In this document: piece by piece, positions 935 through 52,559 of the stretch
Layout: each line of letters opens with the position of its first letter
Position numbering within the stretch: position 1 is the stretch's first letter
Source of the DNA: Mobula hypostoma
Taxonomy: Eukaryota
Direction: 5' to 3'
Length of the DNA: 64,000 nt
Assembly (NCBI RefSeq): GCF_963921235.1
Contig: NC_086097.1
Location: forward strand, 22,570,001-22,634,000
Translations under genes and position numbers: made by a program
The notes under the pieces: generated by a model
What the model saw: only the letters and a program-made list of their open reading frames with translations
Told to the model about the DNA's origin: nothing
The model's database searches: none

Positions 935-1901
935 GGTCAGCGGTAGGTGATAAGAGTGGGCTCCCTTTATCTTCACCCCTCTGACTTTCAATACAGGAGC
1001 CCCTCAGGGGTATGTACTAAGTCCCCACCTTTACTCGTATACCCATGACTGTGTCACCACCCACAGCTCTAGTCTGCTAATTACATTTGTCGATAACACT
1101 ACATTGATTGGCCTTATCTCAAAAAATAACGAGGTGGCCTACAGGGAAGAAGTCATGTCTCTGACACAGTGGTGTCAAGAAAACAACCTCTCCCACAATG
1201 TCACAAAAACAAAGGAGCTGGTTGTGGATTACAGGAGGAATGGAGATGGGTTAACCCCTATTGACATCAATGGATCTGGGGTTGAGAGGATAAACAGCTT
1301 TAAGTTCCTCGGCATCCACATCACTGAGGACCTCACGTGGTCTGTACACACCAGCTGTGTGTAAAAAGACACAACAGCGCCTCTTTCACCTCAGGCGGTT
1401 GAGGAAGTTTGGTATGGGCCCCAGGGGAACAATTGAGAGCCTCCTGACTGGCTGCATCACTGTCTGGTATGGGAACTGTACCTCCCTTAATCGCAGGACT
1501 CTGCAGAGAGTGATGCAGACAGCCCAGTGCATCTGTAGTTGTGAACTTCCCATGATTCAGTACATTTACCAAGACAGGTGTGTAAAAAGGGCCCAAAGGA
1601 TCATTGGGGACCCAAGTCACCCCAACCACAATCGATTCCAGCTGCTACCATCCGGGAAATGGTACTGCAGCATAAAAGCCAGGACCAACAGGCTCCAAGA
1701 CAGCTTCTTCCACCAGGCCATCAGACTGATTAACTCACGCTGATTTGAGTGTATTTTATGTTACATTGACTGTTCTATTTATTATAAATTATTATAAATT
1801 ACTATGATTACACACTGCACATCTAGACAGAGACATAACGTAAAGATTTTTACTCATGTATGTGAAGGATGTAAGAAATCAAGTCAATTCAATTGAATTC
1901 A
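935..1901 (+). mobile_element. Rex1/Babar non-LTR retrotransposon, 5'-truncated, frameshifted RT C-terminal region
   Basis: GAPQG-type motif near 996; ORFs 1104-1364 (NVTKTKELVVDYRR, FKFLGIHITEDLTWS) and 1357-1743 (QQRLFHLRRLRKFG, SFFHQAIRLIN); (CAATT)n-like tail at 1884-1901. Confidence 0.88.
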
Positions 1902-7434: not shown

Positions 7435-8097
7435 ATCACACACAAAGTGCTAGAGGAACTCAGCAGGTCAGGCAGCATTTATAGAGGGAAATACGCAGTC
7501 AGTGTTCTGGGCCAAGACCTTTTATCAGGACTGGAAAGGAAGGGGGGAGGGGGGTGAAGCTGGCAGGGGATTGGTGGAAAAGGTACAGGGCTGAAGAAGG
7601 AGGAATCTGAGGGGAGTGGAGAGTGGACCATGGGAGAAAGGGAAGGAGGAGGGGCACCAGAGGGAGATGATTGGCATTTGAAGAGCGGGAATAAGAGTAA
7701 AGTGGGAATGGGGAATGGAAAAAGAGAGAATGAGAAGGGCGGCGAAATTCCAATTACTGAACATTAGAGAAATCGCTGTTCATTCTGTCATGTTGAAGGC
7801 TATCAAGGTGGAATATGAGGCAGTAGTGGATGCTATAAACTGACTTTCCTTCCTACTCTTGATAATGGGTCTCAGCTTGAAACATTCTCCATAGACACAA
7901 AATACTCTGCAGATGCTGGGGTCAAAGCAACACTCACAACATGCTGGAGGAACTCAGCAGGTCGGGCAGCATCTTTTCCACGGATGCTGCCCGACCTACT
8001 AAATTCTCCATAGACGCTGCCTGACCTGCTGAGTTCCTCCAGCATTTTGTGTGTGTTACTCTAGATTTCCAGCATCTGCAGAATCTCTTGAGTTTTT
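7435..8097. mobile_element. Penelope-derived element with inverted terminal regions
   Basis: Minus-strand arm 7435-7820 ending in a GIY-YIG C-terminal remnant; plus-strand arm 7845-8097. Confidence 0.8.
7897..8002. mobile_element. Younger Penelope-derived mini element nested in the previous one
   Basis: 13-bp TSD attctccatagac (7884-7896 and 8003-8015); internal inversion ggtcgggcagcatc/gatgctgcccgacc. Confidence 0.85.
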
Positions 8098-22073: not shown

Positions 22074-22206
22074 GTGATGAAGGGTCTCGGCCCGAAATGT
22101 CAACTGTTTATTCATTTACATAGATGCTGCCTGGCCTGCTGAGATCCTCCAGCATTTTGTGTGTGTTGCTTTGGATTTACAGCATCTGCAGATTTTCTCA
22201 TGTTTG
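22074..22206 (+). mobile_element. Penelope-derived short element
   Basis: tgatgaagggtctcggcccgaaatgtcaactg...agcatctgcagattttctcatgtttg. Confidence 0.88.
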
Positions 22207-30110: not shown

Positions 30111-30559
30111 ATCTCCTTTACCAAACTGCATCCACTATACGGCACTAACAAATAAATGAATCTCGGGTAGTATATGGTGACATATACATACTTTGGTTAT
30201 ACGTTTACTTCAACTTTGACCACCCTGACAATAAAGATCGATGACCCTGGAAAATAAGGATCACTTTCCATATCTTGGCAGCCACCATTTGACAAAAGTA
30301 GACATTGATGTTGAGCTTCGGGCAGATTCCAGATTCTGAAAACTGAACAAAAATTGCTGGTGTTACTTTTGCATTGCAGGACTCTGAAGAAAATGCTCAC
30401 CTGTGCAATTTTATTTGACACCTTTCCCGCACACAAGACACTGTGCTGAGTGCACTAATTAAAAATATAAATTGCTGAAACAGTACTTATGATTTGAAAT
30501 AGATTGCCACCTTCTGGAAAAGATGTTTTAACCCCAAGCACTTTCCTGTTGGGCTCAAA

Positions 30560-30750
30560 AAGATAAGAGATTCTGCAGATGCTGGAAATCCAGAGCAACA
30601 TACACAGATTTCTGGAGGAACTCAGCAGCACAGTGAATAATGAGGAATAATAGTGATAAGGGATCTTGGCTGGAACCCTCAACTGTTTATTCCTCTCCAT
30701 AGATGCTGCCTGACCTGCTGAGTTCCTCCGGTATTTTGTGTGTGTTGCTC
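30560..30750. mobile_element. Penelope-derived element, inverted arrangement
   Basis: agagattctgcagatgctgg...ggaactcagcag and the opposite arm ctgctgagttcctccggtattttgtgtgtgttgctc. Confidence 0.8.
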
Positions 30751-31644: not shown

Positions 31645-31990
31645 GCAGACATGAGGAAATCTGCAGATGTTGGAAATTCAAGCAACACACACAAAAAATG
31701 CCGTTGAACGCAGCAGGCCAGGCAGCATCTATAGGAAGAGGTACAGTCAACATTTCGGGCCGGGACCCTTCGTCAGGACTGAAAGAAGATATAGCAAGAG
31801 ATTTGAAAGTGGAAGGGGGAGATCCGAAATGATAGGAGAATTCAGGAGGGGAGTGGTGGATCTAAGAGCTGGAAAGTTGATACTAGGCTGGAGAAGGGAG
31901 AGGATCATGGGACGGGAAGCCTGGGGAGAAAGAGAAGGGGGGAGGGGAGCCCGAAGGGTGGAGAGCAGGCGAGGAGTTATAGTGAGATTC
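31645..31990 (-). mobile_element. Penelope-derived element, younger subfamily
   Basis: Close match to 44700-45002 and 42966-43157. Confidence 0.88.
31744..31781 (-). ncRNA. Minimal type I hammerhead ribozyme motif
   Basis: Minus strand cagtc-CTGACGA-aggg tcccgg ccc-GAAA-tg-TT-gactg: perfect 5-bp stem I. Confidence 0.65.
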
Positions 31991-34243: not shown

Positions 34244-34334
34244 CATTTAAGGTTGTCGCATGGATGATAAAAAAATGGAGGGCATTGTGGGAGGGAAGGG
34301 TTAGATCAAGTTTCAGGTGTAAGTTTAATTGTCA

Positions 34335-34516
34335 ACACAAAATAATCTGCAGATGCTGGGGTCAAAGCAACACTCACAACACACTGGAGGAACTCAACAG
34401 GTCGGGCAGCATCCGTGGAAAAGATCGGTTGACATTTCGGGCCGGAACAGTCCTGATGAAGGGTTCCGGCCCGAAACGTCGACCAATCTTTTCCACGGAT
34501 GCTGCCCGACCTGCTG
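34335..34516. mobile_element. Penelope-derived palindromic mini element
   Basis: 13-bp TSD agtttaattgtca (34322-34334 and 34517-34529); about 58-bp imperfect inverted arms around a hammerhead. Confidence 0.9.
34450..34483 (+). ncRNA. Minimal type I hammerhead ribozyme motif
   Basis: gtc-CTGATGA-aggg ttccgg ccc-GAAA-cg-TC-gac with palindromic ACGT in place of stem III. Confidence 0.7.
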
Positions 34517-35519
34517 AGTTTAATTGTCATTTAGCTATACATGAATACCCATGAATACAACCAAACAAAACAGTGTTACTCCGGGGGCCAAGGTGCATAA
34601 CACAGTACCGACAGTCACACACAGCACAAAGCACACATAGCACATATAACATGGTAAGTGCATGTAAGGCAGCGAGTACATATAAGATATCAGTAAAACA
34701 CAGTCACAGAAGGAAATCTAGTCCAAGACCTTGACCCACAAATGCGCTGCGGCAGCCTGCAGTCGAACGCATCATGGCTTATCTTCTGCCAAGTGAACAG
34801 TGAGAGGCAGTGACACCGGCTTGGAGGCTGCGCCCTACTGCCCCCAGCACTCCGGTGGAGCACACCGACTCCAACGCCTCTCTCCTGGGCGGCTGTAAAC
34901 AGGCAACACCGTGCTTTGAGGCGTAACCCTCGCTACGAGTGAGGCCACGCACCTCCCCTGCCGTTTCCCAATAAATCAGTTAATCGAATGCAGCTTAGCT
35001 CTGAGTGTAGGTTAAAAAGTCAGCAAAACATAATGGACAGTCTGTACTGTTTTGTAAGGTTCTATGTTAACATACGGCAAGGTGAGATGGACTCTTGTTA
35101 GGGGTTGTCATTGCTGACCCTTTTGGGGTGAGAATGTTAATTATCAGTCCATGTCAGAATGTCCTTCAGAAGTGTTTTAATGGCTCAGTACTGAACATTT
35201 TCCAATCCTTGACTATATATTATTGAAGTGAATGCAGTCTGGTAGCTCTGGGTGAAATTTAACGTTGTTGTTCCATTGGGGATGTTAAAGAGACTCTTCG
35301 ATATGTACATAATAAAAGGAAAGTGGTGGTCTAAGTGGATGGGATGGGTTAGATTGATCTTACTGTAGGTTAAGAGGACAGCACAACAATGTGGGCCAAA
35401 GGGCCTGTACTGTTTTATGTTCTTTATGTCAGTGATGGTAATTCTGATTCTGTTTCCACATGTTGCAGCGGAGAGATTCACTGCTGAAAGAAATTTGTGA
35501 CCCATTACTTTAAAGGTAG

Positions 35520-37343: not shown

Positions 37344-37443
37344 TTACGTCCTGACGAAGGGTCTCGGCCTGAAACGCCAACTGTACCTCTTCCTAGAGAT
37401 GCTGCCTGGCCTGCTGCGTTCACCAGCAACTTTGATGTGTGTT
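37344..37443 (+). mobile_element. Penelope-derived 100-bp element
   Basis: TSD actggcaatacg/actggtaatacg (37332-37343 and 37444-37455); begins just upstream of ctgacgaagggtctcggcctgaaacg. Confidence 0.88.
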
Positions 37444-37554
37444 ACTGGTAATACGAGCTTTCAGGCTTTTGTACCGTCTGCCCAATCGGAGTGGGTTGTG
37501 TGTAATTTGTAGTATTTTAGCCTCTTAGTTTAACAGGACTACATCAATATTTAT

Positions 37555-43157: not shown

Positions 43158-44572
43158 AGTCATAGTCACAGTCATACTTTATTAATCCCAGGGGGAATTG
43201 GTTTTCGTTACAGTTGCTCCATAAATAATAAATAGTAATAGAACCACAAATAGTTAAATAGTAATATGTAAATTATGCCAGTAAATTATGAAATAAGTCC
43301 AGGACCAGCCTATTGGCTCAGGATGTCTGACCCTCCTAGGGAGGAGTTGTAAAGTTTGTTGGCCACAGGCAGGAATGACTTCCCATGACGCTCAGTGCTG
43401 CATCTCGGTGGAATGAGTCTCTGGCTGAATGTACTCCTGTGCCCACCCAGTACATTATGTAATGGATGGGAGATATTGACCAAGATGGCCTGCAACTTAG
43501 ACAGCATCCTCTTTTCAGACACCACCGTGAGAGAGTCCAGTTCCATCCCCACATCATCATTGGCCTTACGAATGAGTTTGTTGATTCTGTTGGTGTCTGC
43601 CACCCTCAGCCTGCTGCCCCAGCACACAACAGCAAACATGATAGCACTGGCCACCACAGACTCTTTGACCAGTCCAGTTTATTGTCAATTCGTATCCCCA
43701 GGTACTTGTAATCCTCCACCATGTCGACACTGACCCCCTGGATGGAAACAGGGATCACCGGTACCTTAGCTCTCCTCAGGTCTACCACCAGCTCCTTAGT
43801 CTTTTTCACATTAAGGTGAAGATAATTCTGCTCATCCCATGTGACAAAGTTTCCTACCGTAGCCCTGTACTCAGCCTCATCTCCCTTGTTGATGCATCCA
43901 ACTATGGCAGAGTCATCCGAAAACTTCTGAAGATGACAAGACTCTGTGCAGTAGTTGAAGTCCGAGGTGTAAATGGTGAAGAGAAAGGGAGACAAGACAG
44001 TCCCCTGTGGAGCCCCAGTGCTGCTGATCACTCTGTTGGACACACAGTGTTGCAAGCACACGTACTGTGGTCTGCCAGTCAGGTAATCAAGAATCCATGA
44101 TACCAGGGAAGCATCCACCTGCATTGCTGTCAGCTTCTCCCCCAGCAGAGCAGGGCGGATGGTGTTGAACGCACTGGAGAAGTCAAAAAACGTGACCCTC
44201 ACAGTGCTCGCTGGCTTGTCCAGGTGGGGAGACAATGGCATCCTCAATTCCTAGTCAGGGCTGGTAGGCGAATTGGAGGGGATCTAAGTGTGGTCTGACC
44301 ACAGGCCGGAGCAGCTCCAGAACAAGTCTCTCCAGGGTCTTCATGATGTGGGAGGTCAATGCCACCGGTCTGTAGTCATTGAGGCTGCTGGGGCGCGGCG
44401 TCTTCGGCACAGGGACGAGGCAGGACGTCTTCCACAGTACAGGAACCCTCCGGAGCCTCAGGCTCAGGTTGAATACATGGCGAAATATTCCACATAGCTG
44501 AGGGGCACAGGCTTTGAGCACCTTGGTACTGACACCATCCGGTCCTGCAGCCTTGCTTGGGTTGAGACGTTG
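43158..44572 (-). mobile_element. Rex1/Babar retrotransposon, RT domain largely intact
   Basis: LNDYRPVALTSHIMKTLERLV, DPLQFAYQP, DFSSAFNTI, GAPQGTVLSPFLF, KFSDDS; (ATGACT)n-like tail after AATAAA; two internal deletions or frameshifts. Confidence 0.95.
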
Positions 44573-44866
44573 GAATCCCAGAGGATGGTCAAGGAGTATA
44601 GTGAGAGGGACAGAGGGAGAAAAAGAGAAAGAAAAAAATATAATAATAATAAATAAATAACGGATGGGGTACGAAGGGGATACTCGCCCATCCTCTGGGA
44701 TCCCCCCTCCCCCTTTCTTTCTCCCTAGGCCTCCCGTCCCATGATCCTCTCATATCCCTTTTGCCAATCAACTTTCCAGCTCTTAGCTTCATCCCTGCCC
44801 CTCCGGTCTTCTCCTATCATTTTGGATCTCCTACTTTCAAATCTCTTACTATCTCTTCTTTCAGTT

Positions 44867-44902
44867 AGTCCTGACGAAAGGTCTCGGCCCGAAACGTTGA
44901 CT
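44867..44902 (+). ncRNA. Minimal type I hammerhead ribozyme motif
   Basis: agtc-CTGACGA-aagg tctcgg ccc-GAAA-cg-TT-gact; stem II weakened by one change. Confidence 0.55.
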
Positions 44903-45839
44903 GTACCTCTTCCTATAGATGCTGCCTGCCCTGTTGCGTTCACCAGCAACTTTGATGTGTGTTGCTTGAAATTCCAGCATCTGCAGATTTCCTCATGTTT
45001 GTATGTACTCATTTTCAAGGACTCTGCAACTCATGTTCAGTATATTATGTATTTAGTTAATATTTGCACATTTTGTCTTTTGCACATTGGTTGTTTTTCC
45101 GTCTGTGTATGTAGTTTTTCATTGATTCTATTGTATGTCTTTAATCTGTGAATTCCTGCAAGAAAATGAATCTCAGACGTAGTATATGGTGACATATAGG
45201 TACTTTGATAATAAATTTACTTTGCTGTTTGAAATTGCCCCCAAAGTATCCCACAGCCACCTTTTATTGTTACAATGAATGAATGAAGGAATGAATGAAA
45301 CAAGCCCCTTGTTTGTGATTGTGCCTTTTGTCTTTGATCATTCATCAAAAGTCATTGATGGTAATCTGTTTGCACCAATTAATCTGGGTAATGAACTTTC
45401 ATTTAAGGGTATGATTGGGACTTTCTCTGAATTTATTGGCAGCTGGATATGTTCTTCTCACCGTCTGGAAGTTCTGCACACAGTTAAGCTGCAGAATCTC
45501 TGTTTGGAAAATCAACGTCCATACATTGTACACTCAAGACTTGGGCTAATATATTTTAGTGACTGTATGTGCTATTGTAACTACATGTGTTTTGTATGCA
45601 TTGCGTTTTTCACCTTGGCCCCAGAGGAATGCTGTTTTGTTTAGCAGTGTATATGACAATTAAATTTGACTGTAAGCTTGTGATATTAGATTAACTTTGA
45701 AAATGAAAAGAGCTTTTCTTGTAGTTTCTTCAGCTCAGCCTCTGCTATCTTTAAGTGTGTGCAAAATAAATTGCCTTGCATAATGTCTGCAATTTTACGT
45801 CAAAATCAAATTAAAATATATCCAAAATATTTCCAAAAT

Positions 45840-46555: not shown

Positions 46556-47340
46556 GGTTCAAAGGTTCAATTTCATGTCAGAGAAATGTATACAATATAC
46601 ATCCTGAACACACATCAAAGTTGCTGGTGAACGCAGCAGGCCAGGCAGCATCTCTAGGAAGAGGTACAGTCGACGTTTCAGGCCGAGACCCTTCGTCAGG
46701 AACCCTACATCCTGAAATGTTTTTTCTTCACAAACACCCACAAAAATAGAGAAGTTCCCCAAAGAATGAATGACAGTTAAGCGTGAGAACCCCAAAGTTC
46801 CCTCTCCCGTGCGTAAGCGGCAGCAAGCAACAATCCCCCCTCGCCCCCAGCAAAAAAAAACGCACCAGCTACCAAGCACAAGCGTGGGCTAGGTGATAAC
46901 AAAGACACAGACCTTGCAGTTACCCCAAAGACTATCACATTTCATCCAGCATTCGACAAACCACAGGTTCTCTCCCTCCCTAATAAGGGAGAGGGAGGTG
47001 TCCCCCATTTTCACAGCGAGCAGGAGACATAACAACAGCCTGCTGACTTACGATGTTAAAAAGTCCATTTCATTGCTTTTTATGAGCTCTGTGACCGAAG
47101 ATCGCAAAGATCTCGGGTCTTTGGGCCCACAGTGAAAGATTTTCCGGCCTCCCCGACACGCAAATCTCCTTTCGTGACACCAACCCTCGATCTGCCCGTC
47201 TCCAGAGCCCTGAGATCTTAGGCTTTCGAATTCAAGCCGGATTCCCAGGCTGAACCCTTGGGCGTGCTGAACAATAACGGCTGGTCTCGAAACCCCGAGA
47301 ACAGGTCCCATTCCCGCAAAGAACCAAAGTCTGCGTGTAA
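46556..47340 (-). mobile_element. Unclassified non-autonomous retroelement
   Basis: Tandem tail ggttcaaaggttcaa, CpG-rich body; 3' part homologous to the plus-strand insert at about 37595-37877. Confidence 0.6.
46609..46705 (-). mobile_element. Penelope-derived 97-bp element
   Basis: 11-bp TSD tacatcctgaa (46598-46608 and 46706-46716); hammerhead core intact on the minus strand. Confidence 0.9.
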
Positions 47341-47756
47341 ACAAAGGCTGACAAGCAACCAATGTGCAAAAGTCAGTGTTGGTCAAATTAGAAGTTAAGT
47401 GCACATTTTGCTGTGAATTAAAAGCAAAGTTCAGGAGGAGCTTAGTGGGCCAGACAGTATGTGTGGAAGTAAAGAGAAGGTTGGTATAATGAGGTAGTAT
47501 CAGGATTGAGAGTGAAAGACAGCTAGTATAAAGAGGAAAGCTGTTAGTACCTGTCTATAGTAATACATCCTGATATGACTGATCTCTTGCCTCTTCAGTA
47601 CGTTAGCAGCTTTTAACTGCCTTATCTCTTTTTTTACCTGAGACATCACCTTGTGCATTAGCTTTCACACTCCTTCCATTGTTGTTCATCAATCATGACT
47701 TGGAATAATAAACAGACATGATGATCAATAGGAGCTTGACCAGAATATGTAATGTA

Positions 47757-48316
47757 CACTCAGTGGCCACTTTATTCGGTACTTCCTGCACCCAATAAAG
47801 CAGCCACTGAGTCTATGTTTGAGGTCTTCTGCTGCTGTAGCCTGTCCACTTCAAGGTTCGATGCATTGTGCATTCAGAGATGCTCTCTGCACACCACTGC
47901 TGTAATGTGTGGATATCTGAATTTAAGTTGCCTTCCTGTCAGCTTGAACCAGGGTGGCTATTCGCTTCTGACCTCTCTCATTAACAAGGTGCTTTCACCC
48001 ACTGATCTGCTGCTCACTGGAATTTTTTTTCTGTTGTTTTTCGCACCATTCTGTGTAAACTCTAGAGATTGTTGTGTGTGAAAACCCCAGGAGATCAGCA
48101 GTTTCTGAGATACTCAAACCACCCTGTTTGGCACAATCATTCCACTCTCAAAATCACTTAGGTCACTTTTCTTCCCCATTCTGATGTTTGGTCTGAACAA
48201 CAACTGAACCTCTTGATCACGTCTGTATGCTTTGTGCATTGAGTTGCTATCAAATGAGTTGATAAGATATTTGCATTAAAGATCAGCTGTACCTATAATA
48301 AAGTAGCCATTAAATG
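47757..48316 (-). mobile_element. Non-autonomous Tc1/mariner deletion derivative
   Basis: ta-cactcagtggccactttatt TIR; same body as the copies at 15583, 53381 and 58863. Confidence 0.88.
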
Positions 48317-48506
48317 TGCATTCTAGCATCAGTTCTAAGATTGTGGCCACCATAAAGTGATTCAGATGGATTCTAAGTCCCTTCTACATCACCTTTTCTT
48401 TTATGTAGTTCCTACAATCCACTCTGGATCACGTCCAATCCACTTAGTGGTTTGATCATTTTAGATTAGTCTTCCGGTTCAGAGAAATCAACTTCATTCT
48501 CAGAGT

Positions 48507-48737
48507 AACATACATCAAAGTTGCTGGTGAACGCAGCAGGCCAAGCAGCATCTATAGGAAGAGGCGCAGTCGACGTTTCAGGCCGAGACCCTTCGTCAGG
48601 ACCCTGACGAAGGGTCTCGGCCTGAAACGTCGACTGCGCCTCTTCCTATAGATGCTGCTTGGCCTGCTGCGTTCACCAGCAACTTTGATGTATGTTGCTT
48701 GAATTTCCAGCATCTGCAGAATTCCTGTTGTTTGCGT
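48507..48737. mobile_element. Very young Penelope-derived perfect palindromic element
   Basis: 94-bp perfect inverted arms (48507-48600 and 48603-48696), 41-nt tail, 14-bp TSD ttcattctcagagt (48493-48506 and 48738-48751). Confidence 0.95.
48568..48603 (-). ncRNA. Minimal type I hammerhead ribozyme motif
   Basis: Minus strand ggtc-CTGACGA-agg gtctcgg cct-GAAA-cg-TC-gact. Confidence 0.7.
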
Positions 48738-49409
48738 TTCATTCTCAGAGTTGTGGATGTGTTCTTCAAGATTCAGATTAGACTGACATTTAATTCTTTT
48801 TATAGATGTTAAGATTATCGTATTCTATTGACATTATTACAGGTGGCAGAATAGAAAATGAATGGGTTTATTAGATCCACATAAGTAATTGATTTGATTT
48901 AGATTTACTAATCACATGTACAGTGAAGCTTGTTGTTTGCATTAACAGCCAACACCATCTGAGGGTGTACTGGGGGCAGCCTGCAAGCGTTGCCACATAT
49001 TCTGGCTCCAACGTAGCACGCCCAGAAGGTTCGGCAGAACAACACGCAGCCAACGTGCAACAAGCAAAACAAACCTCACTCCCACCTCCCCACCCAAACT
49101 CACAAACAGGCCTCCAGCCTCAGAACAGGCCGCCTGCTGTCCTCTGACTTCCAAACTTGCTGACCTAATAGATTCTACAGTTGTATTTACACTGCACGTC
49201 CCTCATAAAATGAATTGACATTTCCATATTTGATGAGTTTGTTTGATCACGCAATTAACATCCCTCATTCTGGGTTGCTTCAAGTTGACCATTTGTGCAA
49301 TCTAGTATAAGTGTGTTCACAACCATTCCAAACTCTCCAAATTCATACAATTTAAGTAGCAATTGTACTTCTGATTTAATCACAAGTTTGAAGTAGAGAG
49401 CACGTCTTA

Positions 49410-51820: not shown

Positions 51821-52448
51821 TAAGGTTAGCATTCATCTCAGGAGGACTCGAATATAGAAGCAAGGATGCAACATTCAGACTTTATAAAGCACCGGTGAGG
51901 CCTCACTTGGAGTATTGTGAGCACTTTTGGGCCCTTTATCTTAGAAAAGATATGCTGAAACTGGAGAGGGTTCAAAGGAAGTTCTTGAAAATGATTCCAG
52001 GATTGAATAGCTTGTCGTATGAAGAGTGTTTGATGGCTTTGGGTCTCTATTCACGAGAATTCAGAAGAATGAGAGGTGATTTCATTGAAACCTATCAAAT
52101 GTTGAAAAGACTTTGATAGAGTAGACGTGGAGAAGGTGTTTCCTCTGATAGGAGAGGACCAGAGGACACAGGCTCGGAATAGAGGGGCATCCTTTTAGAT
52201 TAGAGATGAGGAGCAATTTCTTTTGCCAGAGAGTGGTGAATCTGTGGAATTCTTTGCCACTGGCAGCTGTGGAGGCCAAGTCTTTATGTATATTTGAGGC
52301 AGAGGTTGATAGATTCTTGACTGGTCAGGTCATAAAGGGATATGTGGCTGAAATTGGGGCTGAGACAAAAATTGGATGAAATGGTGAAGCAGACTTGATG
52401 AGCCAAATGGCCTAATTCAGCTCCTATATCGTAAGGTCTTTTGGTCTA
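51820..52448 (+). mobile_element. CR1 3' fragment
   Basis: ORF 51793-52116 (VRPHLEYCEHFW...LERVQRKF...EFRRMRGDFIETYQML). Confidence 0.9.
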
Positions 52449-52559
52449 AGATGCTGGAGGAATTCAGCAGGTCAGGCAGCATCTATGGAGAGGAAGAAAT
52501 AAAGAGGACGTTTTGGACTGAGTCCTGCCGAGTTACTCCAGCATCTTGTGTGTGATACC

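Follow-up and report, generated by a model that had tools for sequence, protein, structure and literature searches.

Two head-to-head, 5'-truncated copies of a likely Penelope-like repeat form a palindromic insertion flanked by a 14-bp target-site duplication

Introduction

The closest described counterparts of the locus analyzed here are insertions of endonuclease-bearing (EN+) Penelope-like elements (PLEs), for which an adjacent, inverted and 5'-truncated copy of the pLTR, a tail at one end and a target-site duplication (TSD) around the whole unit are the typical layout (PMC3846280; PMC8557442). The Penelope-type tail is defined in PMC8557442 and PMC11167929, and pairs of hammerheads on opposite strands, 100-700 bp apart, are on record (PMC4209133). 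The formation of the inverted structures is called undefined in PMC8557442; Arkhipova (2013; PMC3846280) reads the palindromes at their junctions as the result of self-priming.

The best-studied biochemical relative is the protein of the Anolis Poseidon element (PAc), which in vitro nicks and extends both target strands and is predicted to be a dimer (PMC11167929). Its reverse transcription starts at two sites that bound the tail, and cleavage by the ribozyme is dispensable (PMC11167929). The type I hammerheads of metazoan PLEs combine CUGAnGA, an extra base, a short helix II and GAAA with a loopless palindromic helix III and a short helix I (PMC4209133; PMC6765202). The G10.1-C11.1 pair that closes helix II is conserved (PMC4209133), no cleavage is detectable for the monomeric minimal hammerhead, the activity of dimers is low, and in D. 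virilis the 5' end of helix I coincides with the mapped intron end (PMC4209133; PMC6765202). With respect to the fate of such transcripts, Penelope and palindromic repeats provide a precedent for editing by ADAR (PMC5625713).

Here we analyze a palindrome at 48493-48751 of a 64-kb stretch of DNA, which in its entirety is referred to as the window. The locus shares with EN+ Penelope insertions the head-to-head copies, the tail at one end, the TSD around the whole unit, the heavy 5' truncation and the hammerhead in the repeat (PMC3846280; PMC8557442), whereas both of its copies are stumps of 94-135 nt without an ORF and the whole insertion is palindromic. Compared with rotifer Penelope elements, its TSD is longer (14 bp versus 8-10 bp) and its tail measures 41 nt versus 30-40 nt. 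The elements shared with PAc are the start sites bounding the tail, the use of both strands and the dispensable hammerhead, while the text covered of PMC11167929 reports no inverted joining of two cDNAs. The core of the palindrome reads CUGACGA, and it lacks the ATG that older copies in the window carry. The hammerhead features listed above for metazoan PLEs, from CUGAnGA to the short helix I, recur here; the differences are that helix I is truncated by the insertion, that a G-U pair replaces G10.1-C11.1 and that the location on opposite strands precludes a dimer in cis (PMC4209133; PMC6765202).

Results

Anatomy of the palindrome

The left arm (48507-48600) is perfectly complementary to the right arm (48603-48696) over 94 bp, with 0/94 mismatches. 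A 41-nt tail of the Penelope type (48697-48737, plus strand) adjoins the right arm only, and the 14-mer at 48493-48506 is repeated exactly at 48738-48751, with 231 bases of insertion between the two TSD copies. Arm length, one-sided tail and TSD are exactly as described in the initial annotation. When the whole 64-kb window was scanned for perfect palindromes with arms >15 bp and a spacer of <=40 nt, this was the sole one found.

The initial annotation had placed a 2-nt spacer between the arms. Two nucleotides (AC, 48601-48602) are indeed present there, but their status as a spacer was wrong: the parent element reads ...AGTC|CTGA in longer copies, and AC is the reverse complement of the next two element bases. 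AC is element-templated rather than foreign sequence, and the left copy is 2 nt longer than the right one. The insertion thus consists of a 96-nt copy of the end module (48507-48602, minus strand), which includes AC, is truncated at its 5' end and lacks the tail, and a 5'-truncated copy of 94 nt (48603-48696, plus strand) followed by the tail. The 5' starts lie at -3 (left copy) and -1 (right copy), counted in nt upstream of the CUGA core, and the left copy ends at the tail boundary. At the centre, there are 0 shared and 0 added bases between the arms. Loose ends in the four sequencing runs (72-575 per run) begin only behind 48602.

The insertion is absent from two relatives

The region 48100-49150 was compared with 4 of the 23 listed sequencing runs, which stem from three organisms (A, B and C). 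Two contigs, X5 record 20 from organism B and X10 record 13 from organism C, have position 48492 followed directly by 48738, i.e., the insertion is absent and one copy of the TSD is present; these contigs extend 190-277 letters to each side. Since the empty site has a single 14-mer in B and C, the pair of 14-mers is a true duplication, and the palindrome is a true lineage-specific insertion with a genuine TSD. This supports the earlier claim of a single insertion event.

Run X1 of organism A provides contigs over both junctions, 48196-48529 on the left and 48715-49150 on the right, with 0 differences. These contigs are unbroken at the TSD, are found at flank depth and show the element in opposite orientation; X1 is probably the assembly's own sample, so it does not count as independent. 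In a second sample of organism A, X7, which possibly comes from the same individual, the right junction was found (48717-48896) at a depth of 2.4. The contigs at the outer junctions enter the element by only 21-23 letters, which is below the 31-letter bridging rule, and among the matches listed no contig piece runs through the centre of the palindrome. No empty allele of organism A occurs among the matches listed; as far as these go, the insertion would be homozygous in this organism. None of the listed runs matching the locus is marked as RNA. X7, whether RNA or DNA, shows listed differences that match the DNA runs, and these are not assignable to the palindrome locus.

Two further observations concern the left flank. 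Another short repeat of very high copy number with short inverted ends, showing very high depth, occupies 48100-48315 and 47755-47815, just left of the palindrome. A 21-letter stretch at 48415-48436, which adjoins a 14-nt near-repeat of 48210-48223, is missing in organism B and present in A and C.

Head-to-head pairs recur in the window

The hammerhead core was matched 15 times in the window, compared with 0.01 matches expected, and 31 fragments of the repeat were identified. In half of the 16 core-anchored copies, the sequence immediately upstream of the core is a pyrimidine-rich repeat with a terminal YAG, while the other eight, including both arms of the palindrome, start between -4 and +2 of the CUGA core (copies anchored at 22074, 23620, 33649, 34453, 37351, 46699, 48599, and 48604). 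Against a uniform null, this clustering of 5' ends has a P of 2e-3 to 2e-8 depending on the assumed range, for a set of copies selected on the presence of the core. Given that the arms start at -3 and -1, inside the -4 to +2 zone of the family, each arm resembles an independent truncation. The clustering sits at a polypyrimidine-YAG boundary resembling a 3' splice site, and the predicted cut site lies 27 nt further downstream.

The opposite ends of the copies also fall at two positions. The tail boundary at which the left arm ends is also the end of two tailless single copies (46607-46699 and 37351-37446), and the tail recurs in the copies at 44870-45001, 31645-31777, and 22075-22206, which end where the tail of the right arm ends. 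Three single tailless copies are flanked by TSDs of 11-12 bp; no convincing TSD was found for the single copies anchored at 22074 and 33649.

Among the 31 fragments, close pairs are head-to-head in five cases and tail-to-tail in none, which corresponds to one head-to-head pair per ~13 kb, and the rarity implied in the initial annotation is not supported. Three of the five pairs combine a TSD of 13-14 bp with a one-sided tail, and their centres differ. Apart from the palindrome, these are an insertion of another subfamily at 34322-34529 with a perfect TSD of 13 bp, a tailed left arm and arms identical at 54 of 58 positions, and an insertion at 7884-8015 with a 13-bp TSD, which is nested in a copy of the same family just downstream of its decayed hammerhead. 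In the former (pair 34335-34520), the tailless arm starts at -4 and the tailed arm at ~+11, i.e., the tailless arm reaches 15 nt further 5'. The two remaining pairs (30556-30749 and 52445-52554) are older and have no convincing TSD.

Joints between arms were also collected from the four runs of organisms A, B, and C. The 15 joints listed, out of 442, all lead from an antisense arm to a sense arm at varied positions; their short side comprises only 18-29 letters, and their pile-up at 48601-48602 is partly an effect of the reference edge. Among the 12 rows listed (of 343), four lead from 48601-48602 into a sense arm with only 1-7 letters between. A centre identical to 48601-48602 leaves no joint and so falls outside the joint count. 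A pattern scan of metagenome contigs gave 0 matches.

Class of the repeat and surroundings of the locus

The abundant hammerhead-bearing repeat is likely a Penelope-like retroelement, an identity that rests here on architecture and hammerhead: a minimal hammerhead lies in the terminal repeat, a tail is present at one end, one copy is inverted and 5'-truncated, and a TSD surrounds the unit. EN+ Penelope elements are defined by a linked ORF for a telomerase-like reverse transcriptase with a GIY-YIG endonuclease. A Pfam scan covered 300 of the 314 ORFs (>=50 aa) that lie outside self-repeats; the other 200 of the 514 ORFs in the window are mostly located in self-repeats. Matches were obtained to RVT_1 (3), to ALKBH8_N adjoining one of the RVT_1 matches, and, below the cut-off, to TMEM213. 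No Penelope reverse transcriptase or GIY-YIG ORF linked to any copy was detected by Pfam among these 300 of the 514 window ORFs, all copies in the window being short, and no host exon was recognised among the 300 scanned ORFs. Penelope endonuclease motifs gave two chance-like matches in the window with no link to repeat copies.

RVT_1 matches are located in broken remnants of non-LTR reverse transcriptases at 43313-44749 (minus strand) and 954-1740 (plus strand), which by eye are not Penelope-like. The remnant at 43313-44749 lies between two young Penelope-type copies of opposite orientation (42995 and 44871).

Age and subfamily

In comparison with organism A, the flanks show 12 differences in 665 letters (1.8%) in B and 35 differences in 582 letters (6.0%) in C. 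As the site is empty in B and filled in A, the insertion is younger than the A-B split. The 0/94 mismatches between the arms bound their divergence only below 3.1%, and at a divergence as large as that between A and B, a run of 94 identical bases would still have a P of ~0.18. A perfect TSD is a weak marker of age, as illustrated by the pair 34335-34520, where it coexists with arms identical at 54 of 58 positions. With the mutation rate of 7e-10 per generation determined for the epaulette shark (PMC10587355) and a cartilaginous-fish host assumed, the age ceiling is about 1e7 generations.

At three diagnostic positions, letters other than those of the older family make up 19-66% of the depth in X1, 4-42% in organism B, and ~1% in organism C, these shares being of summed contig depth and not of copy number. 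Many other copies carry the variant letters of the arms too, and organism A has these letters at higher frequency than B or C. These results support a young subfamily with activity after the species split. A later homogenisation of the arms was considered and is unnecessary, the variant letters being subfamily letters and 94 identical bases having a P of ~0.18. The initial annotation had called the insertion very recent and had concluded that the Penelope machinery was recently active; the empty sites and the variant letters bear out activity on the scale of species, while the qualification "very recent" goes beyond what arms bounded only at <3.1% divergence can show.

Hammerhead cores and predicted RNA fold

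A CUGAnGA...GAAA...GUC core is present on each strand, with one sense core per strand, and core, GAAA, and NUH were found on both arms. The minimal motif on the plus strand (48603-48636) has an intact core, a helix I of 1 bp, and a G-U instead of a G-C pair closing helix II, with the predicted cut after 48631. On the minus strand (48568-48603), the core is likewise intact, helix I comprises 4 bp including one G-U gained from the junction, a G-U pair closes helix II, and the predicted cut falls at 48572/48571. In longer copies of the window (e.g., 30038 and 31776), helix I has 4-5 bp. At gathering thresholds, Rfam gave 0 matches in the window. The claim that either strand contains a hammerhead core together with its exact antisense is therefore correct as to the cores, but both hammerheads are cut in helix I.

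The computed RNA fold has an energy of -215 kcal/mol (z = -26.8), and 0/200 shuffles fold as well, in agreement with the long hairpin expected at the outset. The hairpin is favoured over a hammerhead-compatible fold by 55-57 kcal/mol, the core has an unpaired probability of 0.0007, and on either strand the antisense arm is transcribed before the core. According to the model, the core of a transcript would lie buried in a 94-bp hairpin. The proposal that this hairpin sequesters a ribozyme agrees with the predicted burial, but not with the truncated helix I, the single core, and the inactivity of monomers. With one sense core per strand and monomers reported as inactive, there is probably little ribozyme activity to switch off at the palindrome, which likely never held an active ribozyme. 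An active dimeric minimal hammerhead was rejected as a candidate: helix I has 1 bp on the plus and 4 bp on the minus strand, a partner on the same strand is lacking, and the core is buried.

The young-subfamily copies at 37351, 42995, 46699, 48599, and 48604 have G-U for G-C at helix II and CUGACGA for CUGAUGA. The sequences suggest that the spread of this subfamily does not need a canonical ribozyme.

Discussion

The palindrome is an ordinary, well-preserved example of a known insertion layout. We consider it probable that it arose by one insertion of two 5'-truncated copies of the end module, placed head to head and likely derived from both nicks of a 14-base staggered cut. In this scenario, each target nick would prime reverse transcription: the outer start site, primed at one nick, would give the tailed arm, and the inner start site, primed at the other nick, the tailless arm. 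Reverse transcription would in both cases halt at the usual stop of the family, which is the 5' edge of hammerhead helix I at the polypyrimidine-YAG, 3'-splice-site-like boundary. A blunt joining of the two cDNA ends, with fill-in, would follow, a step which we infer and for which the main texts consulted hold no precedent among Penelope elements. The identity of the arms would reflect that both copies came from a template of the young subfamily. In line with this proposal, each arm shares its endpoint with the copies of its own kind, tailless single copies in one case and tailed copies in the other. By eye, the left target end shows weak pairing of ~4 bp, including two G-U/G-T wobbles, with the template at the inner start. 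The tailless-arm ends resemble target bases in two of the three TSD-flanked pairs, again by eye. In L1 twin priming, the second nick of the target provides an internal primer on the RNA, which yields an inverted segment inside one TSD. The inverted part of L1 is, however, a different upstream segment, whereas at the palindrome the same segment is copied twice.

The main rival is a fold-back: a single cDNA started at the tail and stopped at helix I could have served, through self-priming or a template switch, as the template for its own second arm up to the tail boundary, which would be an equally passive event. Such a fold-back fits with the arms being identical at 94/94 positions, with the close pairs being exclusively head-to-head, and with the interpretation of junction palindromes as self-priming in PMC3846280. 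However, the loop would measure 2 nt without microhomology, and a 2-nt loop with neither a shared nor an added base should be a poor snap-back primer. The end of the short arm, moreover, is the second start site used by single copies, and the resemblance of the tailless end to the target in 2/3 TSD-flanked pairs is what is expected of a second primer. For the pair 34335-34520, a tailless arm extending 15 nt further 5' than the tailed one is not simply given by copying the tailed cDNA. We therefore regard the fold-back as possible but doubtful. Priming at two nicks and fold-back are both ordinary Penelope-type by-products, and it is highly probable that one or the other accounts for the locus; most likely, the palindrome is a passive by-product of insertion. 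An artefact of fold-back during assembly or library preparation could be suspected from the centre, which no contig piece spans among the matches listed, but is extremely unlikely in view of the two outer junctions in X1 short-read contigs (0 differences, opposite element orientation, flank depth), the right junction in X7, and the two relatives whose empty site has a single TSD copy.

Two readings would ascribe a role of its own to the palindrome, and we judge both very unlikely. In one of them, it would be a functional hairpin, with the ribozyme held off by the antisense arm or with the double strand selected as a source of dsRNA for ADAR or Dicer. The advantage of 55-57 kcal/mol over the hammerhead fold, the unpaired probability of 0.0007 for the core, and the heavy editing of lizard Penelope and frog palindromic Harbinger repeats (PMC5625713) speak for it. 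On the other side, the insertion is missing from two relatives and so is not conserved; there is one core per strand, helix I is broken on the plus strand, and the closure of helix II is non-canonical; monomers are inactive (PMC4209133); no host exon was recognised in 300 ORFs, which is a weak test; and the editing of such repeats is a generic by-product. A palindrome copied as a unit, i.e., a self-propagating non-autonomous element of MITE-like or retrozyme-like nature, is just as improbable: the frequency of palindromic pairs is consistent with it, but centres and arm lengths differ among the five window pairs and among the joints listed, the inverted repeat falls short of one terminus, and the TSD of 13-14 bp is like that of single-arm copies (11-12 bp). 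MITEs have inverted repeats at both termini, a fixed structure, and short superfamily-specific TSDs. A MITE or another non-autonomous DNA transposon was accordingly rejected, the tail lying outside the inverted repeat, the centres varying, and the 13-14-bp TSD being as in single-arm copies. Non-LTR retrozymes are recognised by tandem direct repeats that carry two or more complete, equally oriented hammerheads (10.64898/2026.07.22.740005); this class is ruled out here, where the units are inverted and each strand has one core.

A transcript of the palindrome would be a plausible ADAR substrate. Like the palindromic Harbinger of Xenopus and the lizard Penelope repeats, it is a self-folding repeat of ~200 bp that would give a tight dsRNA; for those repeats, editing was demonstrated (PMC5625713). 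The literature covered, which is incomplete, contained no report on Penelope mini-insertions in cartilaginous fish that are palindromic throughout.

A more speculative extension of two-nick priming, which we consider rather improbable, is that mini-palindromes are fossils of an asymmetric Penelope reverse transcriptase dimer, with one protomer for each of the tail-bounding sites, acting on opposite nicks. The stops at -1 to -4 would then derive from a short processed RNA template (~135 nt) with its 5' end at a 3' splice site directly next to helix I.

As one of five pairs in 64 kb and with a published layout, the single locus matters little. Its value lies in the clean documentation of one Penelope-type insertion: the empty site is verified, both start sites of reverse transcription are represented, and the junction is base-exact. 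Young copies such as this palindrome are material for a census of how inverted structures form. If the dimer reading is true, the density of pairs and the recoverable empty sites make this genome a ready dataset for the mechanism of Penelope inversion. If many palindromes are intronic, they would present ADAR with a steady load of perfect dsRNA, as is the case for other palindromic repeats (PMC5625713).
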